Shown here piece after piece: positions 24,289-47,134 of a stretch of DNA of 64,000 bases. The stretch's first letter is position 1; the number at the start of each line of letters is the position of its first letter. The translations under genes and the position numbers were made by a program. Below the pieces are notes generated by a model, which saw only the letters and a program-made list of their open reading frames with translations, ran no database searches and was not told the origin of the DNA. This stretch comes from a virus (lineage: Duplodnaviria > Caudoviricetes): positions 1,534-65,533 of the IMG/VR virus record IMGVR_UViG_2786546475_000043; one strand, written 5' to 3'.

Positions 24289-24822
24289 ATGGTACAGAGC
24301 GGGCAAGGCCAAGAGCAGCCCAGAAAGGGCATAGTCCCCGACATCGTTGGGGAAACGATTAGTAACGCCAACTCTCAGATCACTTCAGCTAATTTTGATG
24401 TAGGAACGACTACTGCAACTCCCGCCCCTTCGGGGAATCCGGGGGTCGTGGATACGGTTGTCAGCCAGGTACAGACGGCTGGAGAGCTTTACATACTCGC
24501 GACAGATATCGACTACACCTATTACAGCCCCCATTTCCCCCCGTATTTCCCCCCGTTCTTCCCTCCACACTTCCCACCCTTCTTCCCACCTCACTTCCCC
24601 CCGTTCTTCCCACCCTTCTTCCCTCCGCATTTTCCACCCTTCTTCCCACCCTTCTTCCCCCCGTTCTTCCCACCATTCTTCCCGCCATTCTTCCCGCCCC
24701 ACTTCCCCCCGTTCTTCCCACCGTTCTTCCCCCCGTTCTTCCCACCACATTTCCCGCCATTCTTCCCACCGTTCTTCCCGCCCCACTTCCCTCCGTTCTT
24801 CCCACCGAGCTTTAAGGGGTAG
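24289..24822 (+). CDS. PASTA-like domain protein with a (F/H/Y)FPP x23 tail
   Basis: IVPDIVGETISNA..VVSQ..AG is PASTA-like; aa 82-173 are 23 xFPP units; 3 nt after the fibre stop. Confidence 0.8.
   Translation: MVQSGQGQEQPRKGIVPDIVGETISNANSQITSANFDVGTTTATPAPSGNPGVVDTVVSQVQTAGELYILATDIDYTYYSPHFPPYFPPFFPPHFPPFFPPHFPPFFPPFFPPHFPPFFPPFFPPFFPPFFPPFFPPHFPPFFPPFFPPFFPPHFPPFFPPFFPPHFPPFFPPSFKG
24532..24807 (+). repeat. 12-nt period coding tandem repeat (xFPP x23)
   Basis: 15 FFPP, 7 HFPP and 1 YFPP, with varied synonymous Pro codons. Confidence 0.95.
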
Positions 24823-24824
24823 GC

Positions 24825-25862
24825 ATGAAACCAATACACCCAAATCTTCGAGATCCCCATGACCACTGTCCTCACCACGAGGAGACAAGTCAGTGCACCG
24901 ACGATTGCAAGTTAGGATTTCTCAAGCGAGACATGTCGGCTTATGACTTTGAGATTCCGTCAGCAGACGGAACTAATCCCAACATCTTGGCCGACTCCAT
25001 AGGGAAGGTCACACTGCTATTCAATGTTGCGGCTGGCTGTGGTAATTATCCTCAAATGGTTGCGCTCAAGGTACTGGACGAGCACTACGCGGATGAAGAT
25101 AATTTTCAGATTAAGGCCATCGTTGTCGATGACTTTACTTGCCATGGATTCGGCGAGTTCAATGAGGGCCTAGAGGCATACGCCGAGAAGGAGCATGTCG
25201 ACGAGTCCTTTCGGGGTCTAAATGCTGGTCAGATAGCTGAGAAGTACGCCCGTGAACAGTACGAGGTTGAATTCGAGTTCTCTGAATGCATCAACGGGCG
25301 GTTCGATAAGCATCAATACGACCCGGAATGGCAACCTGGAACACAATATGAACAGGAAATGCATCCATTTTGGCAGTACCTACTACAGGTAGATCTTCTT
25401 CCGCGAGATGAAAACAACCTGCCCTACCATTATGAAGTCAGCCCATGGGCCAAAGAGGAGCAAGTAGTCGACTTAACCCAAGAAGGATTCCATGGGCTTC
25501 AGGGTAATTTCGAAAAGTTTCTCATCACTCCTGATGGTAAAAGTTTCAAACGATACGCGAATGGTTTCCTACTTGGCGAGCGTGATACTTCAGGAGCCAT
25601 GTTCCCCTGGTGGCTAAGTCCAGAGGAGCAGGAGGGTCCAGAATTTCTGACCTATCCAAATCCACTACAGCTCCGAGGAATCCAGGAATCATTGGCCACT
25701 CTCTGCGCAGACATCGACGCTCTGCTCGTGGGTGATGACAAGATTTACGATCCCGAGGAATTTGATGGCGACTATGTGCCCCCCACGGAATCAGCTAGGG
25801 ACGCCATTAGGAAATATGGGGACGAATTCACCAAGGGTCTCGGAGTACAGGAAACGGCGTAG
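24825..25862 (+). CDS. Glutathione peroxidase-like protein (Cys type, with insertions)
   Basis: GKVTLLFNVAAGCG, HPFWQYL, GNFEKFLITPDGK. Confidence 0.8.
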   Translation: MKPIHPNLRDPHDHCPHHEETSQCTDDCKLGFLKRDMSAYDFEIPSADGTNPNILADSIGKVTLLFNVAAGCGNYPQMVALKVLDEHYADEDNFQIKAIVVDDFTCHGFGEFNEGLEAYAEKEHVDESFRGLNAGQIAEKYAREQYEVEFEFSECINGRFDKHQYDPEWQPGTQYEQEMHPFWQYLLQVDLLPRDENNLPYHYEVSPWAKEEQVVDLTQEGFHGLQGNFEKFLITPDGKSFKRYANGFLLGERDTSGAMFPWWLSPEEQEGPEFLTYPNPLQLRGIQESLATLCADIDALLVGDDKIYDPEEFDGDYVPPTESARDAIRKYGDEFTKGLGVQETA

Positions 25863-25871
25863 TGCTAGCAT
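25863..25871 (+). promoter_or_regulatory. Extended -10 TGC-TAGCAT, leaderless start at 25878
   Basis: 6 nt to ATG; no SD. Confidence 0.6.
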
Positions 25872-25877
25872 GTTGCC

Positions 25878-26531
25878 ATGCCCGACGAGGACATGGATGT
25901 CGACTACGACCATTCCCTGGTCGAGCCCGGACACTTCGGGGATTCCTCAGATAACATCATAATTATTAAGAATCTTGTTGCGCCTGAAGATCTCAAGAGG
26001 ATCCATGAACTCCTTCCGGAAATTGGGATCTGGTATAACCCCAGTCCGAACATGTACAACGATGAAGGTATCTGTATCTACGACGCTCAGTACTGGTGGG
26101 ATCGCGTAGTCAATACTGCAATTCTCCGAGACAACTATCTCGAGCTCCACGATCTCATTGACAAGTACAACATGTTGGTCAAGGCAGCCATCGAAGACAA
26201 GTTTGGCTACAAGGTATTCATGCGACCACCTTCCCTGGTCCGCTGGCTGCCCGGCTGCGTCCAAGAACCCCATGCGGACAAACAGCTAAACGATGGAACC
26301 CCCAACCCGTTCCCCACCTATGACATCAATTCGGTCATCTATTGGAATGACGACTTCGAGGGTGGGCAGTTCTATTACGAGCAGCATGACATTGAGTTGG
26401 AAATCGAGCCCGGCATGGCCGTAGTCCACCCGGGTGATGTCCACTACCTCCATGGCGTCAAGCCGGTAACATCAGGAGTGCGTTGGACCAGTCCTGCGTT
26501 TACTACGATCACGAACCTAGGAGAGATGTAA
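25878..26531 (+). CDS. 2OG-Fe(II) oxygenase, prolyl 4-hydroxylase-like
   Basis: EPHAD, YWNDDFEGGQFYY, YLHGVKPVTSGVRW. Confidence 0.9.
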   Translation: MPDEDMDVDYDHSLVEPGHFGDSSDNIIIIKNLVAPEDLKRIHELLPEIGIWYNPSPNMYNDEGICIYDAQYWWDRVVNTAILRDNYLELHDLIDKYNMLVKAAIEDKFGYKVFMRPPSLVRWLPGCVQEPHADKQLNDGTPNPFPTYDINSVIYWNDDFEGGQFYYEQHDIELEIEPGMAVVHPGDVHYLHGVKPVTSGVRWTSPAFTTITNLGEM

Positions 26532-26532
26532 A

Positions 26533-27243
26533 GTGAAGATCGCTGGTTACTGCGGAAATCCATTCATGGCCATTATGTTGTACAAGGAAGTATGGCCGGA
26601 CCCACAAAACTTAGTTGACCGACTAGAAGCTGCTCTTGCTGAGAGCGAACACGAATATTTCTCCTGGAAGAAGGCCACCGTCGGAGATGTCGAGGAAATG
26701 CTCGATTATCGAGATTGTAGTGATTTTAAGATCAGCGAAGCAGTCCTTCCGGTAGGAGCAGACGGTTTCGAAGATCTGGGGGCCATCTACACGGAGTTCA
26801 TTGAGCCAGTCAGGGAGTGCGTTCACAACGATTACGCGAAGAGGTACAACCTCACCCTGGAGTTTGAAGAAGCAACCAACTTTGTCCGGTATTACGAGGG
26901 CCAACACTTCTCGCTACACCCCGACCACGGGTTCTCGTACTGCGCTACTACGTCCACTATTGCATGGCTCAACGACGACTATGAGGGTGGCGAACTGGTC
27001 ATCCCTTACATGGACATCAAGTTCACCCCGGAAGCTGGGGATCTCATGGTCTTCCCCTCGAACTACCCCTACGTCCACCAGTCGTTGCCAATAATCGGAG
27101 ACAAGCCGAAGTATTCAGCGGTCACGATGTATGACTACAACGATCGAAACCATCAGGATCACGGTCAACCACACGCAGCGCTCCAGTACGCACCGGGAGG
27201 ATCAACGCATGACGGACAAATCCAGTCTGCCTCTGCCGCTTGA
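26533..27243 (+). CDS. 2OG-Fe(II) oxygenase, prolyl 4-hydroxylase-like
   Basis: FSLHPD, WLNDDYEGGEL, FPSNYPYVH..KYS. Confidence 0.9.
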   Translation: MKIAGYCGNPFMAIMLYKEVWPDPQNLVDRLEAALAESEHEYFSWKKATVGDVEEMLDYRDCSDFKISEAVLPVGADGFEDLGAIYTEFIEPVRECVHNDYAKRYNLTLEFEEATNFVRYYEGQHFSLHPDHGFSYCATTSTIAWLNDDYEGGELVIPYMDIKFTPEAGDLMVFPSNYPYVHQSLPIIGDKPKYSAVTMYDYNDRNHQDHGQPHAALQYAPGGSTHDGQIQSASAA

Positions 27244-27706
27244 GGTCCTTAACCAGGGCGTAATCGACAACAATGTTGGGGATCGATTCGGGGGCCGAGG
27301 GTTAGCGGCCGGGGTAGCTGGATGGCTAAGCATTGCCATTGTCGACATTGACCCAGAGACCGGAATTTGCCACACAGCTTTCGCTGTGGAGAAAGAACAT
27401 CTCATGTTCACCGGCCATCTACACGGTGCCTGTATAACTGCCCTGATCGATACGTCGCTACCCCTAACCGTTTACCCGTTCGTCCCAATTGGCTCGGTGG
27501 TATTTGTCGGTCATCTGGGTGTCGATTACCTGAGTAGCGTCACGGAGGGCATTTGCGACGCCTACACGACAATCGAGTCTTTAGGTTCAAGTACAGCCGT
27601 GCTTAGAACCAAGGTTGAGAACAAGGGTCGATTGGTAGCCCTTGGAAATGGAACCTGCCACATCAAGAACTTCGACAACAGAAGCAAACTAACAACGGAC
27701 TCCTGA
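27209..27706 (+). CDS. PaaI-like thioesterase (hot-dog fold)
   Basis: GHLHGACITALID, HLGVDYL, GRLVALGNGT; SD GGAGG before the ATG at 27209. Confidence 0.85.
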   Translation: MTDKSSLPLPLEVLNQGVIDNNVGDRFGGRGLAAGVAGWLSIAIVDIDPETGICHTAFAVEKEHLMFTGHLHGACITALIDTSLPLTVYPFVPIGSVVFVGHLGVDYLSSVTEGICDAYTTIESLGSSTAVLRTKVENKGRLVALGNGTCHIKNFDNRSKLTTDS

Positions 27707-28596
27707 TGGAAGTAAATGTCATAAGAAATCATCAGAATCCTCCCGAGATTCGTCAGTGCCGTCCTCGTCGGGATTGGATGGATGAAAGCTACAAAAAGCA
27801 CGCCTATAAGTGCCTACCCTTAACTGCGGCAAACACACACGGGTGGGAAGTGGTTCTTCAACAAGATGTAACTGTGATTTTAGATGACTGGGAAACCATC
27901 CCCAGAGTCCTTGAAGGTCAAACGATTACCCATAGCATTTTTCAGGAGCAGCCCGAAGAAAAGGCTCCCCCTCCCCCACCCGGCAAACGTAGGTGGATAG
28001 GCAATCCTCCCGAGGGTTGGGTTGAGCCGGTCCATGTTCCGGAATCTGTGTTACCTCTTGAGCCGGAAATCCTCCAGACTTACGAACGCGATATTCCCAT
28101 GCCTTCTATCGTAGGAACCATCTCGTTGGCTGTTGATTGGGTCATGAATCCCGGCGAGGGTTACAGCACGTTTATTTCTGGTCCACCCAACTACTTCATG
28201 GACGGCATAGTTCCCCTGACGGCGATGATCCCAGGGTGGTGGCCTGATCCGTTTGCCATGAATTGGAGGATCACCACGCTCAATACTCCGATCACCTTTC
28301 CGAAGGGGATGCCTTACATGTGGTTCACCTTCGTAAAGGACGATTTCCTGCCGGACATCAGGTTCAATGTCAGCGGTACCTGGAATGATCCTGAGTTAAT
28401 GGAAGAGCGAGCCAGCTATGGGGCGGAAAAGAGTCGCAAAGAGATAGAGCAACCGTGGGTTTGGATGGGCGGACTCCGAACCGGCCTCAATGAACACGGG
28501 GAGAGAGTCGGCCCGAAACATGAAGGTCACCCAATTTTGGATGTACCGACTTATGAGGCGGGTAGGGGTTCGGTTTGGGACAAGGTGGATCAATGA
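27706..28596 (+). CDS. DUF6065-like protein
   Basis: RRDWMD...HAYKCLPLTAANTHGWEV, GPPNYF, FAMNWR, FPKGMP. Confidence 0.75.
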   Translation: MEVNVIRNHQNPPEIRQCRPRRDWMDESYKKHAYKCLPLTAANTHGWEVVLQQDVTVILDDWETIPRVLEGQTITHSIFQEQPEEKAPPPPPGKRRWIGNPPEGWVEPVHVPESVLPLEPEILQTYERDIPMPSIVGTISLAVDWVMNPGEGYSTFISGPPNYFMDGIVPLTAMIPGWWPDPFAMNWRITTLNTPITFPKGMPYMWFTFVKDDFLPDIRFNVSGTWNDPELMEERASYGAEKSRKEIEQPWVWMGGLRTGLNEHGERVGPKHEGHPILDVPTYEAGRGSVWDKVDQ

Positions 28597-30434
28597 ACAA
28601 AGATGAACTAGACCCAAAGTCTTCTCAGGAGAAGACCGCCGCATGGGGTGACCAGCGAGGCCTTACCAAGAAAAAGAGGATGAAGGGAGACGGAAATGAC
28701 TCCCACAGTGGTACTGGAATGGCAGCCGGGATGTTTACTGATGCTATGGGACTTCGACTCCAAGGAATAACCCCACAGCAAATTCTTGACGATCAAGAGT
28801 GGTACAGGGGCTTATTGCTCAAACATAAGGCGATTGGTTTCAAGAGACTGAACCCGACAAGAGAAGAGCATCGTGATGTTTTGAGGGCCCTGTATAGCGG
28901 AGAGCACGAGAAGATACCAGGGATCGACCTCGGCCCACTACCCGAGGGCCAAGAGCAGGGTTGGGGAGAAGTCTTCGATGTCACTCATGACTGGATTGAA
29001 ACCAGCAATCAAGGTGTTAAAGAAGACTGGGGACACACGTTTATAGACAAAAACTGGCACATAGACGGTCTCGCCTTTAGAGATGACGTACCGGCACTCA
29101 CAAGCATGCTCATGACGCGCCACACAAAGCTTGTGGAGAACGACGACACTTGTGTCGCGAGCTTGGAATACTTATATGAGATCATGCCTGACGAGTTCAA
29201 AGAGAAATTGCAAGATGCTCGCCTAACCCACATCAACACGGGCCAGTCTCGCACTCACCCAGCTTTACGAACTCATCCAGTGACGGGAGTCACTTCTCTT
29301 TGTTTTGCGATAGAAACATTTTCTAACGATCCGAAGTTGTTCCTGGATAACGCTGTAGAACGGGTGGAACAAAAGATAGACCCGGAAGGTCAAGATAGAG
29401 AAGACCGTCTTCAGGTAACTGGCGCTGTCGATGCCGATGGCAACGTGATAGATATGGGTGAAATCAAGCAATGGGTCATGGATCAGCTGAAAGATCCAAG
29501 GTTGCGGTTTACCTGGAGATGGGATGAAGGTGATCTCTTCGTTTGGGACAACAGGTGTCTTGTTCACACATTCGACAGTGGATTCATAGTCGGTGAACGG
29601 ATATTCAATCGTGTCGAAATGGGATTTGAAGTTCCTTATTACGACCCAACCAAGAATCCAGAGCCGAAGCAATACGAGAAGCCCCAATCCCCCGTCAACA
29701 CGAATAAAACCAGTTCGGAAGAATTTGACAAATCAGTCGAAGCACCAATAGCTGAGGATTGGGCCACCGCCCCCGCCACCCAGGATCACATCCCATTGGT
29801 ACTTACGGAGGGGATTTACGCTCTCCCGGAATACAAGTACTTAGCGAATGGGGTAACACTTTTTGTCATTGTCAAGGACCAGTATTCCAGTGTTCCCGAC
29901 GAGATCATGAGCCTGCGTGAACGTTGCGAGGATCCAGATTTCCATGTCATAAAGGTTCCATACGATGAGAATCACATACTCATCAAGAAATATGCCAGAC
30001 ATTGGCATCCTGGTGAACCGTTGATAGGCCAAATATTTGTCTTCACCAGGAATGGTGACTATTCCACGTCGTTCACCTCAATATCTGATGAGCTTATGGA
30101 CAGCAATACTTTATGGACCGATATTACGTCGCTGCTGGAGCAGCGTAGGGATTTCCGACATGCCGGACACGCTTGGCATTATCCAGACTTTATGAGTTAT
30201 CCGAATCACATGCTGCGGCCATACCATTGGCGGAACTTGTTATTCGAAAGCTACACGGACTTTGACGAGAAAGAAGGCCCCCCCAAAGACTTTTTGGTTC
30301 AGTACGCCATCGACCACATCTTCGGATGTTTCAATCACTACAAGACAAACGAAGAGCGAAAAGAACTCGTTGAGGACGTAAGGGACTATCTGGACATCAT
30401 GCTGGAAATGAACGAACATGAGCTTGGACGCTGA
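28593..30434 (+). CDS. TauD/TfdA-family dioxygenase with an extra C-terminal domain
   Basis: WHIDG, HPALRTHPVTG, WDEGDLFVWDNRCLVH; ~250 extra C-terminal residues; ATGA overlap at 28593. Confidence 0.85.
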   Translation: MNKDELDPKSSQEKTAAWGDQRGLTKKKRMKGDGNDSHSGTGMAAGMFTDAMGLRLQGITPQQILDDQEWYRGLLLKHKAIGFKRLNPTREEHRDVLRALYSGEHEKIPGIDLGPLPEGQEQGWGEVFDVTHDWIETSNQGVKEDWGHTFIDKNWHIDGLAFRDDVPALTSMLMTRHTKLVENDDTCVASLEYLYEIMPDEFKEKLQDARLTHINTGQSRTHPALRTHPVTGVTSLCFAIETFSNDPKLFLDNAVERVEQKIDPEGQDREDRLQVTGAVDADGNVIDMGEIKQWVMDQLKDPRLRFTWRWDEGDLFVWDNRCLVHTFDSGFIVGERIFNRVEMGFEVPYYDPTKNPEPKQYEKPQSPVNTNKTSSEEFDKSVEAPIAEDWATAPATQDHIPLVLTEGIYALPEYKYLANGVTLFVIVKDQYSSVPDEIMSLRERCEDPDFHVIKVPYDENHILIKKYARHWHPGEPLIGQIFVFTRNGDYSTSFTSISDELMDSNTLWTDITSLLEQRRDFRHAGHAWHYPDFMSYPNHMLRPYHWRNLLFESYTDFDEKEGPPKDFLVQYAIDHIFGCFNHYKTNEERKELVEDVRDYLDIMLEMNEHELGR

Positions 30435-31233: not shown

Positions 31234-31792
31234 GCGACACTCAATCGTTGATATTGGCTATTGGACCTGTGACATAGATGCCAATGCCCGAGCTATTCAC
31301 GATCTTGTTGTTGAGAAACACGAACCGAATAAGGATTTCGACTTACCAATCGGGAATCTCACTATGGATCTGCGGCAGAACATCACGACGGCTGCTTGTC
31401 AACTTCTGGGACGACCGTATTACATTGACGCCATTTGGGGCGTGTACACGGCGCCTGGTCAATCTGTTATGGCTCATTCCCACTGGTCGAATACTTGGCT
31501 GAATCCAGAGGAACACTTCTCTTTCTGCTACTACCCCCTCTGCCAAGAAGATGATGCTGACATGGTGATTCACATCATGTACTGCAATCGTCTTGAAAAG
31601 CTTGAAAGCATTCCGCTTCGTCCGGGTCTGTTGGTCATCTTTGGGGCGTACTATCAACACATGACAACAAGACAGTTTCCTGACAGGGACCGGGTGTCTA
31701 TAGCTGGTAACCTCTACCCTTATGAGTCCACCGGTATTCCAATACGACGAGAAATGCGACAAGGTGTAACGAGCGACGACTTATGGCAGTAA
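31220..31792 (+). CDS. Putative 2OG-Fe(II) oxygenase (TIGR02466-like)
   Basis: IWGVYTAPGQSVMAHSH, FSFCYY, PGLLVIFGAYYQH, RVSIAGN. Confidence 0.75.
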   Translation: MHNAKRHSIVDIGYWTCDIDANARAIHDLVVEKHEPNKDFDLPIGNLTMDLRQNITTAACQLLGRPYYIDAIWGVYTAPGQSVMAHSHWSNTWLNPEEHFSFCYYPLCQEDDADMVIHIMYCNRLEKLESIPLRPGLLVIFGAYYQHMTTRQFPDRDRVSIAGNLYPYESTGIPIRREMRQGVTSDDLWQ

Positions 31793-33926: not shown

Positions 33927-33927
33927 C

Positions 33928-34908: not shown

Positions 34909-34910
34909 GA

Positions 34911-39759: not shown

Positions 39760-41294
39760 AGAAGAACTTAGTTATTGTCGGTTCCGGCCAATCTGGCCTC
39801 ATTGCGGCTCTCCTGGTTAAGTCGATCCTTCCCGAGTATGCGAACATAACCGTAATCTCATCCTCAGACATTCCCCCAATAGCTGTCGGCGAGGGTAGTA
39901 CGGAACATTGGAATGAATTCGAAAAGATTGTGGGATTGGTACGGAGAGAAACGATTAGGCAATGTGACGCAACTTTCAAATATGGCATACGGTTTATGGA
40001 TTGGACTCACCATACGCCGGACTACATGCATAGCATCGGCGGTGATGGGCTGTACGCGGACCATTTCAACGTCCTTTACAACTATGTCAACAGCTCAGAT
40101 CACTTATTAACCTCAGTCCTTCTGCCGGTGGGGCTGACTGAAGGCCTGGTCAAACATGAAGAGGATGACCACATGCTTCATCAGGTTAACCAACTTCATT
40201 TCGATACCCATAAGCTAAATAACTACCTAAGGGATCGATGCGTCAAACTCGAAATTGAGTTTGTAGATGCAAAAGTTCAAGGTCTAGAACGAGATTCTCA
40301 TACCGGAGACATTGCGAAACTGGTTACTTCGGCTGGCAACTATCCAGCCGACTTTGTAATAGATGCCAGTGGGTTCAGCAGAACTGTGCTCAGTTTGTTG
40401 GGAGATGTCCACTGCACGACGTTTGATGATGTCCTTCCCTGTGATACTGCTCTCGTTTTTCGAACCCCTTCGGAGTCCAATAGCATTCTGAAGCCCTACA
40501 CCTCGGCCAGGGCTCTTTCGTCTGGATGGCTTTGGGAAATTCCAACCTACCGTTGTCGTGGAAACGGGTATGTCTTTTCATCAGATTACATAACCGAATC
40601 TCAAGCTCTCGAGGAAGTAGAAACTACTTTAGGGATTGAGGTTCCCGATGCCAACCTAATTGAATTTCGTCCACATTACGTTACAAATTCTTGGCAATCC
40701 AACTGCGTGGCGGTAGGGCTGGCGTCCAATTTTCTGGAACCCCTGGAGGCGACATCCATCGCAGCCACCATTAACCAGGTAAGGCTACTTTGTTCGAACT
40801 TGCCCGCCTATAAACCCAACTCGAGCGTCTTGCAAAACAGCTACCTGAAAACCTTCAGATCTATGGTTGATAATATGCTGGCCATGGTGGCGATGCACTA
40901 TGTCAGCGATCGTGCCGATTCTCCAATGTGGCTTGAGCAGCAAAGCCGTCCTAAACCAGATCTCCTCCAACACCTCATCGGAATCATGAAATATCGAGGA
41001 CCTGAGGATCACGATATTCCTCATACCGGTTTTGAGTTGTTCCGCGCAGGACATTTTTGGCACGTCGGACAAGGACAGGGTTTGATTGACCGGGAGAATA
41101 GTAGGGTTGCACTCATGGCTCGCCTACAAGAAGATAATGCAGCAGACCGGGTCAGGACGATCGTCACCCAGCAGGGAGCGAAGGGTTCTCTCGACCATCG
41201 TAGGGTTCTTGAGCTGGCAAGGGAAGACTTGCCGGTCACTCACTATCCCGACTGGAAATTTGGCGAATACCAAATAGAGAGGCTAGATGTCTGA
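39756..41294 (+). CDS. Flavin-dependent halogenase (tryptophan halogenase PrnA/RebH family)
   Basis: IVGSGQSG, VGEGST, ATFKYGI (catalytic Lys), WLWEIP, GLASNFLEPLEATSI. Confidence 0.92.
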   Translation: MKKNLVIVGSGQSGLIAALLVKSILPEYANITVISSSDIPPIAVGEGSTEHWNEFEKIVGLVRRETIRQCDATFKYGIRFMDWTHHTPDYMHSIGGDGLYADHFNVLYNYVNSSDHLLTSVLLPVGLTEGLVKHEEDDHMLHQVNQLHFDTHKLNNYLRDRCVKLEIEFVDAKVQGLERDSHTGDIAKLVTSAGNYPADFVIDASGFSRTVLSLLGDVHCTTFDDVLPCDTALVFRTPSESNSILKPYTSARALSSGWLWEIPTYRCRGNGYVFSSDYITESQALEEVETTLGIEVPDANLIEFRPHYVTNSWQSNCVAVGLASNFLEPLEATSIAATINQVRLLCSNLPAYKPNSSVLQNSYLKTFRSMVDNMLAMVAMHYVSDRADSPMWLEQQSRPKPDLLQHLIGIMKYRGPEDHDIPHTGFELFRAGHFWHVGQGQGLIDRENSRVALMARLQEDNAADRVRTIVTQQGAKGSLDHRRVLELAREDLPVTHYPDWKFGEYQIERLDV

Positions 41295-42075
41295 AATGAT
41301 GGAACACCATTTCCCGGTCGGTAGGTCAAATCACGTTATGGTGTTTGACAACTACCTTGATCCAGACGTGTGTGATGAGGCCGTTGAATTGTTCAAGGTC
41401 CACTATTCGCGTCTGTTCACCCCAGGACCAACCTTTAGTGGAGTGACCCCTGGGGTCAAGCTGAGCCAGGATGCTGCAATCGACCCCAACTCTCTAGCGG
41501 ATTTGGGCCTGGAGGGATCAGGCTTAACGGTGCTTCGAAACCAAGCTGAAACGGCCATACATATTGCAGTCCAAAGGTACATTCAGGAATACCGCACACT
41601 TTGGTCCTGGCCGGGGATAGGCGAATCTGGTTTTCGGGTTCAGCACTATCATCGAGGACATGGTTTTTACCGACAACATTGCGACCATTTACCGTGGGAA
41701 GGTCACCCTTCGCACTCCGCTGTTGCGCGAGTGCTCGCTACCATCACCTACCTCAACACCATCGAAGTTGGGGGAGCTACCCGCCTGGTCGAGCAGGAAG
41801 CCGATGTCCAGCCGGTAACGGGGAGAATATTGATCTTCCCAGCCACCTGGACCCACCCCCACATGGGGCTACTTCCGGTCTCCTCGGACAAATGGATTCT
41901 AAGTAGCTTTATCCATTGTGCAATAGAGGAGTACCACGAGGACTTCCAGTCGGAAACGTGGATTACACCTCTCAAGGACGGCGTGGAGGTTGGTGAGGCA
42001 ACTGAGTTGCTCAAAGAGGAGTTGCTCACAGAAGAGGCTACCGAGGACACAGAAGAGGCTACCGAGGACGAATGA
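41287..42075 (+). CDS. 2OG-Fe(II) oxygenase, prolyl 4-hydroxylase-like
   Basis: YRQHCD, TYLNTIEVGGAT, FPATWTHPH..KW. Confidence 0.9.
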   Translation: MSEMMEHHFPVGRSNHVMVFDNYLDPDVCDEAVELFKVHYSRLFTPGPTFSGVTPGVKLSQDAAIDPNSLADLGLEGSGLTVLRNQAETAIHIAVQRYIQEYRTLWSWPGIGESGFRVQHYHRGHGFYRQHCDHLPWEGHPSHSAVARVLATITYLNTIEVGGATRLVEQEADVQPVTGRILIFPATWTHPHMGLLPVSSDKWILSSFIHCAIEEYHEDFQSETWITPLKDGVEVGEATELLKEELLTEEATEDTEEATEDE

Positions 42076-42107: not shown

Positions 42108-42257
42108 ATGCCCACGACTCCCGATAAATGGAATGCTGAGAGCGAACGCTACGAAGGCCACGACTACGAAGAGTCGGGCAACCTTGTGTTCTGCATGATG
42201 TGGGACACGCCTCCAATGACCATAGATGACCCAATTCTTAATCCACTGGAGGATTAA
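42108..42257 (+). CDS. 49-aa peptide (triad member); missing from the ORF track
   Basis: GGAGG SD; MPTTPDKWNAESERYEGHDYEESGNLVFCMMWDTPPMTIDDPILNPLED*; -10 box TACAAT at 42076. Confidence 0.7.
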   Translation: MPTTPDKWNAESERYEGHDYEESGNLVFCMMWDTPPMTIDDPILNPLED

Positions 42258-42260
42258 GTT

Positions 42261-42560
42261 GTGGCTTACGACATCGACGCCGACTACCAATACCTCTGCA
42301 CCCATCTAGCCCTACTGATTGCGTCCGTTGGGGGAGACGACGAGACCGTCGAAACCATGACCCATACAGACTTGCGGCTCTTAATCACGACCCACTACAA
42401 CGATCTCCCCAGCCCGGGCGCTGCCCCATACGGTGGGCGTATGAGTCCTGACGACTGGACCCCTTCCGAAATTGCCTCAAGCAGGATCAGATTCCAAAAA
42501 TACGACAATGCCCGGAAGTTCATCTTCTATCGGGATCTCTTGAAGGCGAGGATGGCCTAA
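42261..42560 (+). CDS. Hypothetical ~100-aa protein (triad member)
   Basis: GTG start with GGAGG; similar to 36733-37038. Confidence 0.75.
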   Translation: MAYDIDADYQYLCTHLALLIASVGGDDETVETMTHTDLRLLITTHYNDLPSPGAAPYGGRMSPDDWTPSEIASSRIRFQKYDNARKFIFYRDLLKARMA

Positions 42561-43261
42561 TGGCATTGCCAACCGCAGTAGACATGCTCAAGGTTGCGGA
42601 AGCCCACGGGAACGCGGCCCACTACGCCAGTATCGAAGTGGCTACAGAGAAAGCCTTCGCCGAAGCCGTTATCGCCGAGGAACTCGGACTCGGAGCGGAT
42701 CGAAGTACTGAGAGTATCGGCATCCACGATGATATGAATCACTACGCGCACGCCGCTATGTGGTCCGAAGCTTTTGGAACTGTGATGCTGCATTCGCGCA
42801 CCATCCAAGAAATGCTGATTCGAATGGCGAATCCATCAGAACGCCTGGTGATTTCGAATAATCCGTATTTCCTACTGAAGCTCGGTATTGGCAATGTGAC
42901 CATTGCTAACAGTATTCACCTTGACTACCTGGAACGACACCACAATATTTCCGGCTTGGAGTACAGCGTTATCTCCATGCAGGACATCGAAGCTGGTAGT
43001 TTCACTACAACGTATGACATGGCTATTGTTGGTATGCCCCTGGTTAGACACGACTTCGGGTTGATAGACACGATCTACGGTCAGCTACCTAATGGTGGGT
43101 CAGTTATCCTTACCAGCAGCAATGACCACGGGAAGCTGTTTCACTTCAACAACGCCCATGACTATTCTGCGGTATATGAACATCTTAAAACTTTGACAGG
43201 GGCTCACTTGTACCATATACCTGGAGGCCTCGGGATCTCACTCCTCACCAAGACCGTTTGA
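42560..43261 (+). CDS. Class I methyltransferase-fold-like protein lacking motif I
   Basis: MQDIEAGSFTTTYDMAIV, QLPNGGSV, YHIPGGLGISLL. Confidence 0.55.
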   Translation: MALPTAVDMLKVAEAHGNAAHYASIEVATEKAFAEAVIAEELGLGADRSTESIGIHDDMNHYAHAAMWSEAFGTVMLHSRTIQEMLIRMANPSERLVISNNPYFLLKLGIGNVTIANSIHLDYLERHHNISGLEYSVISMQDIEAGSFTTTYDMAIVGMPLVRHDFGLIDTIYGQLPNGGSVILTSSNDHGKLFHFNNAHDYSAVYEHLKTLTGAHLYHIPGGLGISLLTKTV

Positions 43262-43272: not shown

Positions 43273-43278
43273 CCCAAT

Positions 43279-44121
43279 ATGGAATTCAGGATTTCGGGTA
43301 AAGACCTATTACATGACGATGCTCGCATTATCTCGGATATTGAAGTCGAACCTGGACACATACTCCTAGCTCCTCACGACAATTCTTTGTTCCACCCAAC
43401 CATTACCCCGCTTGACAATCTGAAAACCTGGCCCCCGTGGCGCAGAGAAGTGTTCGCTGGATTGAAGGCCTGTCAGGGAAACTCTGATTACATATCGCTG
43501 GGGGGCACCTGGAGACTGCATGGCGACGTGAGGTTTCGTCCTTCAGCAGACATGACCCAGTGGGAATCACGGATAGACCTTGATCCTCCCCCGGGTGACC
43601 AGCATCCCGATCTCTTCAAGACTGACATTTTTCCTTACGGAGCTTCCGGCCCCAGCTGTCCCTTCAATAAAGACAGAGCTCTGCCTGAATCTAACCAGTG
43701 TAAGGTTGTTAATCCTTGGATAATTAAGACTGCTCCTGGTTGGTCCACCATCCTCATTCCAAACCTTATGGAGCCGTCAAGGGACTGGAGTCTTATTCCC
43801 GGGGTAGTCAATACCGACTACTACCACCACATGCATTGGGTTTTCAACATCTACACCGACGAAGAATTCGTCCTTCGAGCTGGAACCCGCGTAGGACAAT
43901 TCATCACTTTCCCGCGCAACCATCAACACGTCGAATTTGCTTCGCCAAAAGTTGCCTCCATGCTTGAAACTCTTGGCTTTGATTCTCCAATTGGCCACCC
44001 TATAGACAAAAAGGGGGCCTATCGCAGGGAACACCGCAAGGCTGATCGCGTGAAACCGACGGTAGAAGCGCCCAAAGAGTCCATGCTGAATAGGATTCGG
44101 GAATGGCTGATCGGTACCTGA
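43279..44121 (+). CDS. Hypothetical protein, DUF6065 / dUTPase-like fold suspected
   Basis: KVVNPWIIKTAPGWSTIL, IPGVVNTDYY, LRAGTRVGQFI. Confidence 0.5.
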   Translation: MEFRISGKDLLHDDARIISDIEVEPGHILLAPHDNSLFHPTITPLDNLKTWPPWRREVFAGLKACQGNSDYISLGGTWRLHGDVRFRPSADMTQWESRIDLDPPPGDQHPDLFKTDIFPYGASGPSCPFNKDRALPESNQCKVVNPWIIKTAPGWSTILIPNLMEPSRDWSLIPGVVNTDYYHHMHWVFNIYTDEEFVLRAGTRVGQFITFPRNHQHVEFASPKVASMLETLGFDSPIGHPIDKKGAYRREHRKADRVKPTVEAPKESMLNRIREWLIGT

Positions 44122-44203: not shown

Positions 44204-44545
44204 ATGGCTCTAACTCAAACCAGGTTGGCTGGGCCCGCCGTTATCTCCAATTCAGGAACATACGGTACTTCACAGTACGTTGTCCCTGCAGCGACTTCTG
44301 CGATCGTCAAACAGATCGTGCTCTCGAACATCACTGCGTCTGCCCAGACGGTCACCATCACCCTGCTTCCTAATGCTGGAAGTCTCGCAGACACCATGAT
44401 CCTGTTCAAGGATCTGGCGTTGACGGAAAAAGAAACTACCTTTCTTAACATGTCCCTAGTTATGAATACCGGAGATACGTTATACGCACTGTGCGGAGCC
44501 GCCAGTTCGTGCAACATCACTGCGTCCGGAATCCAGGTAACGTAA
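44204..44545 (+). CDS. Virion structural protein
   Basis: YVVPAATSAIVKQIVLSN..LVMNTGDTL, typical of small phage structural proteins. Confidence 0.6.
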   Translation: MALTQTRLAGPAVISNSGTYGTSQYVVPAATSAIVKQIVLSNITASAQTVTITLLPNAGSLADTMILFKDLALTEKETTFLNMSLVMNTGDTLYALCGAASSCNITASGIQVT

Positions 44546-45237
44546 TGGCCTGGGGTAGAACCCGGGTCAATTCTCCCGGTCTCCTCGCCAGTTTCCTCGA
44601 CTCACCGGATGACATTTACGGTTCGGGAGCAGATGATTCTGTCACCATCTCCGGCAACACAACGCTGTCCAGTGACATGTTCTATTACGACCTTACGGTT
44701 AATGCCAATATCACCCTGAACACGGGTGGCTATCGGGTATTCGTAAAGAATGTCCTAACGATGGGGTCATCTGCTGTAATTGGACTTCCTGGCGGATCTG
44801 TTGCGACGGGAACCCTCAAGGGTGGCGGTGCCGCGTCAGCAAATACCACAAACAGTCTGGGGGGCAATGGCGCAAGCGCTACCGCAACTCAGATTACTGC
44901 AGCAGCTGGTGGGGCAGCATATTACAGGCACCCCTCACAGGCCGTCAGGGGTTACAACGTCACCGCATCAGCTACAACTCCGACCTATCTTGAAGGTGGT
45001 GCTGGTGGTACCGGCGTAGGTGGAGGAGTAGTTATCGTCTGTGCCCGCTACATCTCTACCAGCGCAGCGTGCACCGTTTCCGCAACCGGTGGGGCCGCTG
45101 CTGGAGGCGGGGTCGTTATCTTTGTTTCGTCCAATGATGAAACCATATTCAATACCCAAACCCACTTGACACTAGACGTTGCTAAGGGTGCGGGCGGTGG
45201 CACCGACGGGACAGCCATTTATCTCGAGGTGGACTGA
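44545..45237 (+). CDS. Gly-rich fibre/adhesin-like structural protein
   Basis: DMFYYDLTVN..TGGYRVFV, GGGVVIVCA; TAATG coupling. Confidence 0.65.
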   Translation: MAWGRTRVNSPGLLASFLDSPDDIYGSGADDSVTISGNTTLSSDMFYYDLTVNANITLNTGGYRVFVKNVLTMGSSAVIGLPGGSVATGTLKGGGAASANTTNSLGGNGASATATQITAAAGGAAYYRHPSQAVRGYNVTASATTPTYLEGGAGGTGVGGGVVIVCARYISTSAACTVSATGGAAAGGGVVIFVSSNDETIFNTQTHLTLDVAKGAGGGTDGTAIYLEVD

Positions 45238-46844
45238 TGCCGATTATTCGTCATAATCACCCAATCCAGCAGAGACTTGGCAACAACATCATTTATGGTG
45301 AGGGCCAAGACGCCACTGTGGTAATTACCACAACGGTTTTCCTGACCAAGGACATGTACTACCAGAATCTCACCATTAATAGCGGTGGAACCCTGTTCAC
45401 CAACGGATTCAGGGTATTTGTTGCCGGAAACCTCGTAGTCAACTCTGGGGGCGTCATCGGAATGCCAGCTGAAATTCCTTCAACGGTCTCGGTTGGAACC
45501 GTCTATGGGCGTGGTGCCGACGGGTCCTCCCCCAAAACCTATGTAATCGGGGACTCCGCAGCCGGTACCCAGGTTCCGACAGAAATTCTGAACGATCTCG
45601 AAAACATTGTCCAGGGTTGGAACTGGAGCGTTATCGACGGATTCAAACGCATGGAGGGTGCTGACGACGGTGACGATGGAGCGGATACACCCGGAAGCCC
45701 GGGTGGTGCGGGCGGCGGGGGCAATGCGGGCAACCCTGGCGGAAACGCACCAGCCGGAGCAAATCCATCAGACCCACTCGGCAATCCTGGCACGGCTGGC
45801 AACCCTGGCAATCCTGGCACGGCTGGCAACCCTGGGGCAACTGGCCCTGGCGGTGCAGGCGGTATCGGAGGCGGTCTAGTTCTGGTAGTCGCAAAAAACA
45901 TTTCTGGAACCGGTTCGATTGTGAGCCAAGGCGGAGCGGGAACAGCGGGCACCACGGGTGCGTCTGGTAATCCGGGCGCAGGTGGCAATCCCGGTACGGG
46001 TGGCGGAGCCGGAAATCCTTCCCCCACTATTCCCGGAGACTCCCATGGTGCACACGGGGGAAACCCAATTCCGGGCGATCCGCCTTCAGATGCTGATGCA
46101 CCGGCACATTCGAAATCTCAGTCGGATCCCAACCCATTTCATGCCCATGCCTCTCATGCGGATGCAAAACCTCACTCCAATACGGATGCCAAGACGAACC
46201 CAGGACCGGCCAACACTGGTACACCGACTAGCTCGGATGCTGGAAGTAAAGAGATTCCCGGAGACCCAGTTCCGTGTGAGGTAAATACCCCTGGATACCA
46301 TTTCCCTGGAGGTCCTGGAAATGGTGCTGGCTACATTCCGCCTTTTTATATTCCCGGGCCTCCCACACATTCCCACTGCCCTGGTGCCCCAGAACCACAT
46401 GCATACGGCGACGGCTCAGATCCTCAGGCGACTGCCAACTCAGATCAAGATCCCATTCCCGGAACACAGCACTCGGATCCATTACCCACGGGAGGCGGCA
46501 ATGCAGATCCTCAACCCCTTCCAGATAACAACCAATCGGATCCCGCACATACTCCGGTTCCGCCAGCCGGGAATCCCAAGACTGGGGATCCGGTTGCCGA
46601 TCCGCCCACACCGTCCAGTAATCCGTACTCAGGGCCGGGTGGGAATCCGCCCTATACCAACCCTGGTGGAACCTCTGGTGGAGTGGGCTCAGGCGGTGCG
46701 GCGGGTGCGGCAGGTACCGGTGGCACCGGAGCCACTGGAAGTACTGGCGGCCTAGGCGGCATTATCGTCATCACTGATAGCGCTTCCCCGCTGAGCACGA
46801 CCCAAGTCAGTGCGACTTACTCACATCTCCAACTTTCTACTTGA
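45237..46844 (+). CDS. Gly-rich collagen/polyglycine-like protein with a Pro/His/Asp-rich insert
   Basis: Paralog of the upstream gene; G-x-x runs with GNP; ~210-aa insert rich in SDP and His. Confidence 0.75.
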   Translation: MPIIRHNHPIQQRLGNNIIYGEGQDATVVITTTVFLTKDMYYQNLTINSGGTLFTNGFRVFVAGNLVVNSGGVIGMPAEIPSTVSVGTVYGRGADGSSPKTYVIGDSAAGTQVPTEILNDLENIVQGWNWSVIDGFKRMEGADDGDDGADTPGSPGGAGGGGNAGNPGGNAPAGANPSDPLGNPGTAGNPGNPGTAGNPGATGPGGAGGIGGGLVLVVAKNISGTGSIVSQGGAGTAGTTGASGNPGAGGNPGTGGGAGNPSPTIPGDSHGAHGGNPIPGDPPSDADAPAHSKSQSDPNPFHAHASHADAKPHSNTDAKTNPGPANTGTPTSSDAGSKEIPGDPVPCEVNTPGYHFPGGPGNGAGYIPPFYIPGPPTHSHCPGAPEPHAYGDGSDPQATANSDQDPIPGTQHSDPLPTGGGNADPQPLPDNNQSDPAHTPVPPAGNPKTGDPVADPPTPSSNPYSGPGGNPPYTNPGGTSGGVGSGGAAGAAGTGGTGATGSTGGLGGIIVITDSASPLSTTQVSATYSHLQLST

Positions 46845-46846
46845 TG

Positions 46847-46852
46847 TAAAAT
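46847..46852 (+). promoter_or_regulatory. -10 box TAAAAT, leaderless start at 46859
   Basis: 6 nt to ATG; no SD. Confidence 0.6.
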
Positions 46853-46858
46853 ATTCAC

Positions 46859-47134
46859 ATGACGAACTTTCAACTCTCATCCGCCAAACGTAGGGAAATC
46901 CTGCTCAAAGCTCGGCAGGACCTTGAGCACAACTTGTACGATAGGGCGGCCCGAATGGATCTCGACTTGGATTTATTTGATCCCCAGAACCCTGGCCATT
47001 CGTGGAATTACACTGGGGTTGACACCCAGGTGGAACAGGGTTTCACCGAGGACACCATCCGAACCATGGAAAGACTAGGCACTACTCTTCGAAGTATCGT
47101 CGAAAAACTGGAAGGACCCAACAGGGTCATCTAG
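46859..47134 (+). CDS. Small helical protein, possible fibre chaperone
   Basis: LSSAKR..LEHNLY..LDLDLFD; directly after the collagen-like gene. Confidence 0.65.
   Translation: MTNFQLSSAKRREILLKARQDLEHNLYDRAARMDLDLDLFDPQNPGHSWNYTGVDTQVEQGFTEDTIRTMERLGTTLRSIVEKLEGPNRVI

Follow-up and report, generated by a model that had tools for sequence, protein, structure and literature searches.

What might a row of 2-oxoglutarate (2OG) oxygenases, placed directly behind a tail fibre gene, be doing in a phage genome? The question is raised by a stretch of 64,000 nucleotides (hereafter the window; positions 1,534 to 65,533 of IMG/VR record IMGVR_UViG_2786546475_000043) from an uncultured myovirus whose host probably belongs to the Actinomycetota. 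Because it encodes WhiB, this virus is probably an actinophage rather than a cyanophage. A sequence-only reading had proposed that an island between positions 24289 and 47134 oxidatively decorates virion fibres or a repeat peptide in a RiPP-like way, with Pro-rich and Gly-rich substrates at its two ends. We regard the locus as a fibre-module form of the phage dioxygenase array, and we see about an even chance that its conserved core is a protein-hydroxylation system. Two genes set the scene:

19174..24285, plus strand: tail fibre of 1703 aa, Thr/Ala/Gly-rich (PHROG 30390 match, internal repeats)
24289..24822, plus strand: xFPP protein, candidate substrate (translation; PASTA match of 20.9 bits, below cut-off)

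Translation of the second gene confirmed the 23 xFPP units noticed earlier directly after the fibre. The 177-aa protein begins with a PASTA-like domain of about 80 aa and ends with 23 copies of the four-residue unit (F/H/Y)FPP and a terminal SFKG. At the DNA level the repeat has a period of 12 and is only 75% matched; the copies have therefore diverged at synonymous sites. The protein is a conserved family across viral contigs, and fibre homologues lie upstream of its gene in nearly all related loci. Only 3 nt separate the fibre stop from its start. The repeat protein is a putative virion component. Between the fibre gene and position 33199, genes are separated by gaps of 1-15 nt or overlap, and the packed fibre-gene block shows no excess of terminator-like sites. 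The oxygenases are the following:

25878..26531, plus strand: 2OG oxygenase A, prolyl-hydroxylase type, core gene (PF13640, AF2, Foldseek, profile)
26533..27243, plus strand: 2OG oxygenase B, core gene (PF13640, 36.5 bits)
30418..31233, plus strand: 2OG oxygenase, first of a five-paralogue family (PF13640, 41.6 bits)
31220..31792, plus strand: 2OG-FeII_Oxy_5-like protein with HSH replacing HxD (PF13759, 19.8 bits, below cut-off)
32408..33199, plus strand: 2OG oxygenase, five-paralogue family (PF13640, paralogy, HxD..H)
33132..34025, minus strand: 2OG oxygenase, five-paralogue family (same evidence)
33928..34908, minus strand: 2OG oxygenase, five-paralogue family (same evidence)
34911..35963, minus strand: 2OG oxygenase, five-paralogue family (same evidence)
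38453..39127, plus strand: 2OG oxygenase, triad present (PF13640, 46.3 bits)
41287..42075, plus strand: 2OG oxygenase (PF13640, 42.6 bits)

Nine of these genes (25878, 26533, 30418, 32408, 33132, 33928, 34911, 38453 and 41287) match PF13640 above or near its cut-off, and all nine carry the HxD...H...R/K signature. Ten HxD..H oxygenases had been counted from the sequence; nine are canonical and the tenth, 31220, is not, given its HSH motif and sub-threshold match. Members of the five-paralogue family share 25-37% identity.

Protein prolyl and lysyl hydroxylases (P3H1, the Bacillus anthracis prolyl 4-hydroxylase BaP4H, vCPH, PHD2) are the closest relatives of the three oxygenase families tested. 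In the 25878 family, H132, D134, H192 and R202 are invariant among 29 orthologues. The AF2 model of 25878 (pLDDT 87.8) was best matched in Foldseek by PiuC, vCPH (5c5t), P3H1, PHD2, BaP4H, LH3 and C-P4H-II, with E about 1e-9 and TM of 0.5-0.65. As best solved relatives, family profiles retrieved P3H1 for 25878 (E 2.7e-6), BaP4H for 26533 (E 8.5e-7) and PKHD/PiuC for the 30418 family (E 1.9e-6), which also matched BaP4H.

This class assignment bears on a quite different function, the modification of nucleotides or DNA bases by TET/JBP-like oxygenases acting with dUTPase-fold proteins, for which two further genes are relevant:

27706..28596, plus strand: DUF6065 protein, core gene (PF19541, 117 bits)
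43279..44121, plus strand: 280-aa protein with a weak dUTPase-like match (PF00692, 17.1 bits, below cut-off; phrog_7084)

Both had been read as DUF6065-like, which holds for 27706; in Pfam, 43279 has only the weak dUTPase match, and its homologues adjoin the repeat gene in some relatives. The AF2 model of the DUF6065 protein (pLDDT 76.5) predicts a dUTPase-like beta-barrel fold: its VIA-align search reached Z 9.8, and the top 22 rows were all dUTPases, dCTP deaminases or viral dUTPase-related proteins. Together with a Tet_JBP match of 30418 (E 0.007, below cut-off) and a 30418-family profile match to the Naegleria Tet-like dioxygenase (E 0.12-0.17), this fold is what speaks for nucleotide chemistry. 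However, matches to prolyl and lysyl hydroxylases are better by orders of magnitude, and the block lies in the fibre and structural module, away from replication genes. Cys36 is invariant in the DUF6065 family, whose invariant residues, compared by eye, do not resemble the dUTPase motifs. We consider base or nucleotide modification highly improbable. No DUF6065 homologue was found in cultured phages.

The suggestion that xFPP proteins and oxygenases travel together across phage genomes was borne out: they co-occur and are adjacent across divergent clades with differing gene orders. Searches with the xFPP protein gave 43 viral loci, 38 of which contain one to eight oxygenase homologues, mostly with a DUF6065 homologue as well; three of the other five (L009, L016 and L017) end at the repeat. 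From the enzyme side, 56 viral loci were retrieved through 25878, and in 45 of them an aromatic-Pro tract lies no more than about 6 kb away on the same strand; nine loci without a tract have short flanks, and two apparent exceptions, L071 and L072, correspond to records G016 and G015, in which a DNA pattern search located a common short tract beside the array. The L071 tract belongs to an FN3-like protein with C-terminal PPYFPPYFPPYFPPRFK. Among 23 records related by their tail sheath (50-93% identity), the FPPxFPP pattern lies beside the array in all seven that have one (at least three PF13640 genes) and occurs in none of the 16 with zero or one such gene (Fisher p = 4e-6, ignoring shared ancestry). 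None of these co-occurrence counts is corrected for shared ancestry, and many of the records are fragments. Of three 100%-complete genomes, G016 and G022 have both tract and array and G026 has neither. Counting against the tract as substrate, oxygenase gene number does not follow its proline count (51 loci, rho 0.05, p 0.71).

The association persists where the partners differ. In the L086 clade, with an oxygenase at only about 40% identity, an Mtd_N fibre is followed by an FN3, repeat and intein/Hint protein, two 2OG oxygenases, a DUF6065 gene, five more 2OG oxygenases, a Collagen triple-helix protein (E 1e-21), a PASTA, repeat and Hint protein, a lectin-like protein and the portal. The enzymes thus adjoin repeat proteins of PASTA, FN3 and Hint-capped architecture.

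These patterns are difficult to reconcile with the idea that the hydroxylases are auxiliary genes that modify proteins of the host (translation factors, or components of the ribosome or envelope) or reprogram host metabolism as a 2-oxoglutarate sink, and sit beside the fibre because it is an insertion hot-spot. A hot-spot leaves unexplained both the joint gain and loss of tract and array in sheath-related phages and the persistence of the enzymes beside PASTA, FN3 or Hint-capped repeats or a collagen protein, and a sink would hardly call for eleven paralogues. A host target is nonetheless suggested by BaP4H, a solved relative that, according to the title of entry 5v7y, binds and modifies EF-Tu, which counts against a phage-borne substrate, and by the PKHD/PiuC-type enzymes among the nearest relatives. 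Cyanophage 2OG oxygenases have been tied to 2OG/nitrogen-stress signalling and DNA repair (PMC3037559), and P4H genes are common among the auxiliary genes of viruses, with a use that "remains cryptic" (PMC9301287). On balance, a host target appears unlikely.

Co-occurrence fits equally well with a tract that is a polyproline-type docking site or scaffold, or a chaperone for the fibre, and brings the enzymes to a different target, such as the fibre, a Gly-rich or collagen-like protein, or the host cell wall bound by the PASTA-like domain. Many aromatic residues are invariant in the 25878 family, and collagen-like or G-x-y proteins lie inside the block in some clades and in this window:

44491..46844, plus strand: a pair of Gly-rich paralogues, 248 and 535 aa long; the longer (45237) has short GNP G-x-y runs

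Against such a role, the fibre contains 1.8% Pro and no collagen-like runs, collagen-like and Gly-rich proteins are missing from complete relatives that keep tract and enzymes, and the tract is the only Pro-rich element always present. We judge this arrangement quite improbable. The Gly-rich proteins had been put forward as a second bracket of substrates, a role their distribution does not favour, as homologues occur in two of five related records.

The remaining genes are of another kind:

24825..25862, plus strand: GPx-fold protein that has a long insert and, in NVAAGCG, a candidate active-site Cys (GSHPx, 25.2 bits)
27131..27706, plus strand: hotdog (PaaI-type) thioesterase, variable accessory (4HBT, 34.8 bits; TIGR00369, 42.9 bits)
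28575..30434, plus strand: TauD/TfdA-family dioxygenase extended by about 270 aa at its C-terminus (PF02668, 71.6 bits)
31783..32454, plus strand: NADP-binding oxidoreductase-like protein (F420_oxidored, 22.7 bits)
35972..37250, minus strand: cassette 1, with 71-aa and 101-aa ORFs and a 265-aa O-methyltransferase-like protein (paralogue of 42560)
39115..39759, plus strand: 214-aa protein with no Pfam match (BLASTP against 38453)
39756..41294, plus strand: flavin-dependent Trp-type halogenase, variable accessory (PF04820, 298.6 bits)
42108..43261, plus strand: cassette 2, with 49-aa and 99-aa ORFs and a 233-aa O-methyltransferase-like paralogue (paralogy, family profile)
54895..56631, plus strand: second TauD-family dioxygenase and eleventh 2OG oxygenase, beyond the 47134 boundary first proposed

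The gene inventory drawn up from sequence largely stood, including the thioesterase, the TauD enzyme at 28575 and the halogenase, which is intact and of Trp type (Trp_halogenase E 1e-88; GSGQSG, ATFK, WLWEIP and FLEPLE present), its nearest solved chains being Trp 5-halogenases (E 1.5e-51), with VirX1 at E 3e-34. For the GPx-like protein, NVAAGCG and NFEKFL, presumably GPx-like motifs, are retained and the Pfam match falls short of the cut-off (25.2 against 27 bits); the "NAD dehydrogenase" has only its marginal F420_oxidored match. Both methyltransferase-like cassettes are present, their likeness resting on a distant profile match to caffeoyl-CoA O-methyltransferases (CCoAOMT; E 3e-4) and on Atlas leads to Methyltransf_3. 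Two items did not stand. Similarity of 39115 to 38453, of which it was thought a dead paralogue, is not detectable (BLASTP E 2.4), and the island does not stop at 47134: past the second giant protein lie the TauD gene at 54895, a 2OG oxygenase at 56077 and, on the minus strand, an amidohydrolase at 57070.

Nor is a single coherent island supported. Synteny with relatives covers the left half only, from the fibre to about 36 kb. Across about 100 related loci, each taken with about 10 kb of flanking sequence on both sides of the repeat gene or a 25878 homologue, 26533 has 86 orthologues, the GPx-like protein 18, 31783 12, TauD 28575 eight, and the halogenase and thioesterase one each. Variable additions to the core are the halogenase and the thioesterase, the TauD enzymes, the cassettes with O-methyltransferase-like proteins, and the Gly-rich proteins.

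It is these genes that recall small-molecule pathways, of which halogenases, hotdog thioesterases, TauD enzymes and catechol-O-methyltransferase-like proteins are typical, a point against protein modification. The array might build or tailor, for example, a halogenated, hydroxylated or O-methylated aromatic or peptide metabolite, the repeat protein being a nearby fibre accessory; the Trp-type halogenase, PaaI-type thioesterase, two TauD-family enzymes, CCoAOMT-like proteins and amidohydrolase of the window would fit. A precedent exists in Syn9 gp41-gp54, where tandem dioxygenases, Trp halogenase(s) and a dUTPase-fold protein were read as genes for secondary-metabolite synthesis (Iyer, Abhiman, de Souza, Aravind 2010, PMC2938197) and no aromatic-Pro or Pro-rich tract is present. 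However, no scaffold-forming enzyme (NRPS, PKS, ATP-grasp, cyclase) is among the Pfam/NCBIfam matches of the island proteins, it is the suggestive genes that vary, protein hydroxylases are the closest relatives of the conserved core, and the both-or-neither pattern with the tract is left unexplained. A small-molecule product thus seems improbable.

The resemblance to Syn9 is real. Its array also combines a tandem series of many 2OG dioxygenases that look unrelated with Trp-type halogenase(s) and a dUTPase-fold protein containing a conserved Cys; it lies directly downstream of fibre and fibre-assembly genes, and the Gly-rich gp36 is encoded between fibres and array. The earlier remark that oxygenases cluster near fibre genes in cyanomyoviruses therefore holds for Syn9, a T4-like cyanophage, whereas the virus studied here is a WhiB-carrying, actinophage-like myovirus. 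Syn9 matches are limited to the halogenase, 41287 and 31220 (22-26% identity; 26% between 41287 and the gp50 region), and the published reading is not virion-protein modification. Collagen-like and tail-collar proteins have nevertheless been proposed as substrates of co-encoded bacterial dioxygenases (Iyer et al. 2010, PMC2938197). T4-like cyanophages carry several 2OG oxygenases, at most five per genome (PMC3037559 table), and prnA-type halogenases (Sullivan et al. 2010, PMC3037559), with no linked repeat protein reported, whereas eleven or twelve oxygenases occur per block here; in the catalytic core, 25878 is 32-39% identical to theirs. A similar enzyme array was thus already published in 2010, and we found no account in the literature tying one to a repeat protein; the new evidence for such a link is comparative.

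Other systems that modify Pro-rich repeats offer partial parallels. Chlorovirus PBCV-1 encodes a prolyl 4-hydroxylase (vCPH, among the top structural matches of 25878) and its own proline-rich repeat peptides, and hydroxyproline was not detected in its virions (PMC7019647). PBCV-1 is a eukaryotic giant virus with a single enzyme; the present array has up to eleven paralogues, the repeat unit is four residues of aromatic-Pro-Pro type, and the genes for enzyme and candidate substrate are adjacent and co-inherited. The P4H, P3H and lysyl hydroxylases of collagen and plant or algal extensins share the enzyme class by profile and fold and act on Pro-rich tandem repeats, the candidate substrate here, and the related L086 clade has a true collagen-repeat protein in its block. 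They differ in working in the secretory pathway rather than a bacterial cytoplasm; except for the short GNP runs of 45237, neither a Gly-X-Y nor a Ser-Pro4 tract occurs in the window, and no glycosyltransferase was found in it, as the sequence-only reading had also noted. RiPP clusters, with their 2OG hydroxylases and flavin-dependent halogenases, likewise set a ribosomal repeat polypeptide beside tailoring enzymes. However, RiPP recognition, leader-protease, YcaO, radical-SAM and lanthipeptide families are absent from the Pfam/NCBIfam matches of the island proteins, no leader/core layout, recognition element, protease or exporter was found, and the candidate substrate, which carries a folded N-domain, is encoded in a virion structural operon. 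The RiPP analogy is thus dropped along with the Gly-rich substrate, while the link between repeat and oxygenases and their hydroxylase class are retained from the original proposal.

That the conserved core hydroxylates the repeat tract is an explanation we hold with roughly balanced confidence, as to both substrate and chemistry. The fibre, the repeat protein, 25878 and 26533, the DUF6065 protein and five further paralogous hydroxylases would be expressed from one packed transcription block. In the infected cell, before or during virion assembly, the enzymes would hydroxylate prolines of the tract and perhaps the side chains beside them, the many paralogues differing in position, sequence context or regiochemistry, and the GPx-like and NADP-binding proteins would provide redox upkeep. 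By analogy with P4H action on collagen and plant extensins, hydroxylation could give a very hydrophobic Phe-Pro tract the character of a stiff rod, more soluble and rich in hydroxyproline. Tract and enzymes are present together or missing together in relatives, and this phage therefore probably hydroxylates its own fibre-associated repeat protein.

The aromatic-proline tract encoded directly after the tail fibre is a well-founded candidate substrate for a conserved core of predicted prolyl-hydroxylase-type enzymes, a reading to which we give roughly even chances. The sequence-only reading had proposed that the whole gene island is a candidate protein-tailoring system bracketed by putative Pro- and Gly-rich substrates. 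What it described is largely there, and its interpretation is supported in part: the link between tract and enzymes is supported, and the Gly-rich bracket, the analogy with RiPPs and the unity of the island are not.

The source record is a linear 65.5-kb IMG/VR viral contig (CheckV completeness 44%) that is almost wholly covered by the window. The window has a GC content of ~52%, and its genes include those for a tail sheath, a baseplate wedge protein and fibre-like proteins. The following features are referred to below.

19174-24285: tail fibre of 1703 aa, followed 3 nt later by the 177-aa xFPP ORF
47632-52833 (+): acidic protein of 1733 aa (19% Glu, 10% Asp, 18 Cys), which divides the oxygenase island in two
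52989-53774 (+): 261-aa protein with a PG_binding_1 domain, probably an endolysin, between the giant acidic protein and a second TauD/2OG oxygenase pair
62580-62771 (+): WhiB-family gene (PF02467, 50 bits)

Downstream of the xFPP gene, genes are tightly packed, with overlaps or gaps of 1-15 nt, up to 33199. A convergent minus-strand block (37725 to 33132) follows, and a second plus-strand block starts at 38007. Promoter-like and terminator-like sites showed no excess over shuffled sequence.

As first described, the ORF after the fibre carries xFPP units: its last 96 residues are 23 (F/H/Y)FPP units followed by SFKG. The 12-nt DNA units of the tract agree at only 75%, so that the copies have diverged at synonymous sites; the tract is not a fresh product of slippage. 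An IMG/VR scan with the xFPP protein recovered 43 related loci, whose ORFs share an N-domain of ~80 aa (PRK..VPNIVG..NA.SQI.SAGF.VGT); the number of xFPP units in them ranges from 6 to 32. The PASTA profile PF03793 scores 20.9 bits on the window protein, below its gathering cut-off of 23.2, and 25.1 bits on the relative in L086, a locus of a distant clade; four database homologues have a precomputed PF03793 match. No match was obtained by tblastn of the N-domain, the DUF6065 protein or the product of gene 43279 against cultured phages, nor by megablast of the whole island against them, and literature searches on aromatic-Pro tracts or FFPP repeats in phages and on DUF6065 returned no relevant paper.

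Among tracts that lack a Hint cap, x-F-K or x-F-K-G is a very frequent ending (SFKG, GFKG, RFK, YFK, FFK, AFK), and a Lys conserved at this position could serve for processing or cross-linking. Other tracts terminate in a Cys-rich tail, CPSCPGGCGSGFYCNCGTCGF. These tract ends were read at 24808-24822 in the window and in L010, L027, L035, L037, L040, L042, L063 and L071. Tracts of some relatives include WFPP units (L112:5845, L113:805), the Trp of which would be a natural target for a Trp-type halogenase; the window's own tract contains no Trp.

On the enzyme side, nine of the ten HxD..H oxygenases first counted are PF13640-type proteins with an intact HxD..H..R/K, and the tenth (31220) is a sub-threshold Oxy_5-like protein with HSH. 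The iron triad and the basic residue that binds 2OG are present in 25878, 26533, 30418, 32408, 33132, 33928, 34911, 38453, 41287 and 56077. They are invariant in alignments of orthologues from related loci, built for 25878 (oxygenase A), for 26533 (oxygenase B) and for the five-paralogue family (30418, 32408, 33132, 33928 and 34911). The supposed dead paralogue, 39115, contains no HxD/E...H triad. It shows no detectable similarity to 38453, and this part of the first description is not supported. By profile, the solved structures that come closest are those of prolyl 3-hydroxylase 1, the P4H of B. anthracis and PKHD/PiuC-type hydroxylases, then LH3 and the chlorovirus enzyme vCPH; PDB searches with the single sequences of 30418, 26533 and 38453 gave nothing useful. 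The AF2 model of 25878, the only paralogue folded (pLDDT 87.8), has as its top Foldseek matches PiuC, vCPH, P3H1, PHD2, BaP4H, LH3 and C-P4H-II, and Tet/JBP matches are far weaker than those to prolyl/lysyl hydroxylase-type proteins. As modeled, 25878 has a double-stranded beta-helix fold of the P4H/PHD/P3H/LH type and is predicted to be of the prolyl-hydroxylase type.

The association of tract and enzymes was examined from three starting points. First, starting from the repeat, 38 of the 43 loci contain 1-8 oxygenase homologues, mostly together with a DUF6065 homologue; five contain no oxygenase, and three of these stop at the repeat. Second, starting from the enzyme, a same-strand aromatic-Pro tract lies within ~6 kb in 45 of the 56 loci found via 25878, and nine others have no tract but short flanks. 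The apparent exceptions L071 and L072 belong to records G016 and G015, where a DNA pattern reveals the same short tract beside the array; the tract of L071 is the end of an FN3-like protein, PPYFPPYFPPYFPPRFK. The co-occurrence that the sequence-only reading proposed as a check is borne out from both sides. Third, the tail sheath was used as an anchor, since the fibre C-terminus had yielded only 3 loci. This sampling, which starts from neither tract nor enzyme, gave 80 contigs at 50-93% identity, and 23 of the longer records were searched with PF13640 and with a DNA pattern encoding FPPxFPP. The pattern adjoins the array in all seven records with at least 3 oxygenase genes and occurs in none of the 16 with zero or one (Fisher p = 4e-6, a value that ignores shared ancestry and includes many fragmentary records). 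Three of the genomes are rated 100% complete; two have both tract and array and one has neither. Within this one phage group, tract and array are gained and lost together. The number of oxygenases shows no relation to how many prolines the tract contains (rho 0.05; 51 loci, each truncated at 10 kb).

A DUF6065-profile scan of a genome collection picked up five contigs from MAGs assigned to four phyla; none of the five is informative on the host. The same block of fibre, repeat and oxygenases is present on four of them, and the fifth, L114, has only the DUF6065 and oxygenase genes. The island's left half (fibre, xFPP, GPx-like protein, 2OG-A, 2OG-B, DUF6065, TauD, 30418-type paralogues and NADP-binding protein) is syntenic in several contigs at 45-70% protein identity, and the MAG contigs among them are clearly the same phage module. 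In the distant clade represented by L086, whose oxygenase is ~41% identical, the genes are arranged in this order:

Mtd_N fibre
FN3 domain with aromatic-Pro tract and intein/Hint domain
two oxygenases
DUF6065 protein
five oxygenases
Collagen triple-helix protein (E 1e-21)
PASTA domain with tract and Hint domain
lectin-like protein
portal and prohead protease

In this order the oxygenase battery is part of the structural module and has proline-rich structural proteins on both sides; the carrier domain varies while the tract and the enzymes persist. Hint domains that follow the tract, at L086:5686-7023 and L086:14762-15676 and also in L081-L106, start with C(V/I)xGD(T/S)LILT and match Pfam Intein_splicing (E 3e-7 and 3e-6). 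Such a cap suggests self-cleavage where the tract ends, the released C-terminus possibly being passed to another molecule; the xFPP protein of the window has no Hint domain. One oxygenase of this clade (L086:12218-13060) has an N-terminal match to the CDGSH iron-sulfur zinc finger (29.0 bits, slightly below cut-off), which hints at a built-in redox partner.

The Gly-rich proteins fare differently as the second bracket of the island. Homologues of the paralogues 44491 and 45237 were found in only two of five related records, and a complete 206-kb relative keeps the tract and six oxygenases with no Gly-rich homologue. Four short G-x-y runs are present in 45237, which lacks long uninterrupted Gly-X-Y repeats and does not match PF01391; this collagen repeat occurs only in the relatives L086/G006 and G007. 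The fibre itself, considered as a collagen-like substrate, was rejected in view of its 1.8% Pro and its lack of collagen runs. Nor could the RiPP analogy be sustained: Pfam and NCBIfam searches of the island disclosed no leader/core precursor, recognition element, leader protease or class-defining enzyme.

Most of the accessory enzymes first named are present. The TauD-family enzyme has a long C-terminal extension, and the hotdog (PaaI) thioesterase is recognized by Pfam and NCBIfam. The PrnA-like protein is an intact Trp-type flavin-dependent halogenase (PF04820, 298.6 bits, residues 5-452) with all of the motifs GSGQSG, ATFK, WLWEIP and FLEPLE and a match to PyrH-type chains at E 1.5e-51. 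The Pfam searches of the window gave no flavin reductase family to partner the halogenase, a part that a host enzyme could play. The GPx-like protein keeps a candidate active-site Cys, with a GPx-fold match below the Pfam cut-off, and the alleged NAD dehydrogenase amounts to a marginal match to an NADP-binding protein. The DUF6065 assignment stands for one protein. The model of this protein (pLDDT 76.5) is a dUTPase-like barrel (VIA-align Z up to 9.8, ~10% identity), and the top 22 VIA-align rows consist entirely of dUTPases, dCTP deaminases and viral dUTPase-related proteins; an Atlas search gave viral hypothetical clusters only. The invariant residues of the family, which include Cys36, do not seem to resemble the dUTPase motifs. 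The two methyltransferase-like cassettes are indeed duplicated three-gene cassettes headed by the paralogues 35972 and 42560, whose likeness to caffeoyl-CoA/catechol O-methyltransferases is distant. Their family profile covers only the C-terminal half of CCoAOMTs (E 3e-4), Atlas leads to Methyltransf_3/CCoAOMT score 0.90-0.92, the two proteins have no Pfam or NCBIfam match, and the small ORFs of both cassettes belong to no Pfam family.

Unity of the whole 23-kb island is not supported: the left half is the syntenic part, and related loci contain one orthologue of the halogenase and one of the thioesterase. Its proposed end at 47134 does not hold either, as it continues beyond the 1733-aa acidic protein with another TauD, the eleventh 2OG oxygenase and an amidohydrolase. 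The acidic protein matches nothing in Pfam or PHROG, and a 147-aa ORF with a hydrophobic C-terminal stretch lies just before it.

The host is most likely actinobacterial, judging from gene content. WhiB, a marker gene of actinobacteria and of their phages, also occurs in two complete relatives and is the strongest indication of the host that the window offers. Phages of Gordonia, Arthrobacter and Brevibacterium account for most of the sheath matches and for all of the baseplate J matches, and psbA is found in none of five relatives. The same three observations speak against a cyanophage. Binning had put the contigs that carry the phage module in L110-L113 into Gammaproteobacteria, Verrucomicrobiales, Acidibacter and Cyclobacteriaceae MAGs. 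They are most likely mis-binned phage contigs, and they call for caution in assigning hosts from bins.

The closest published parallel comes from cyanophage Syn9, in which ten dioxygenases arrayed in tandem, together with two Trp halogenases and a dUTPase-fold protein that has a conserved Cys, were proposed to synthesize a secondary metabolite (Iyer et al., 2010; PMC2938197). The same authors also proposed that co-encoded dioxygenases act on bacterial collagen-like and tail-collar proteins (PMC2938197). The present island likewise has tandem dioxygenases (eleven 2OG and two TauD genes), a halogenase and a DUF6065 protein with a dUTPase-like fold and an invariant Cys, and the Syn9 array directly follows the Syn9 fibre genes. 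As for the JmjC/MINA-type dioxygenase of Syn9 (gp49), Pfam gave no JmjC/cupin-8 family and tblastn matched gp49 to no window protein, although distant members could escape both searches. Syn9 lacks a Pro-rich tract and has only the Gly-rich gp36, whereas the xFPP tract is present here; the co-inherited repeat protein is what is new relative to the Syn9-type array.

In aquatic viromes, few "auxiliary metabolic" genes are as common as those resembling prolyl hydroxylases, and phage dioxygenase arrays have been termed unprecedented since 2010, their substrate not being known (PMC9301287, PMC2938197, PMC7019647). Cyanophage 2OG oxygenases have been tied to 2OG signaling and DNA repair (Sullivan et al., 2010; PMC3037559), and what viral P4H genes are used for "remains cryptic" (PMC9301287). 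The P4H of chlorovirus PBCV-1 is active on Pro-containing peptides, and hydroxyproline was not found in PBCV-1 virions (PMC7019647).

A far more speculative picture, which we consider improbable, is that large actinophages build an appendage resembling extensins or mussel adhesives. The aromatic-proline tract on small fibre-associated proteins would be multiply oxidized by dedicated paralogous hydroxylases, each acting on its own position or residue; some lineages would add halogenation or O-methylation, and in others a Hint domain would release the tract as a C-terminal thioester to be ligated to a virion or cell-wall component. Were this true, phages would decorate their host-recognition organelles chemically by a programmable system of several enzymes, and the purpose of the abundant viral "P4H" auxiliary genes would be explained. 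The more limited reading, that the tract is the substrate, would already imply that the array genes are not metabolic at all but encode virion-maturation enzymes, and that phages join animals and plants as users of hydroxyproline-rich rods, with a bearing on host recognition, particle stability and virome annotation.
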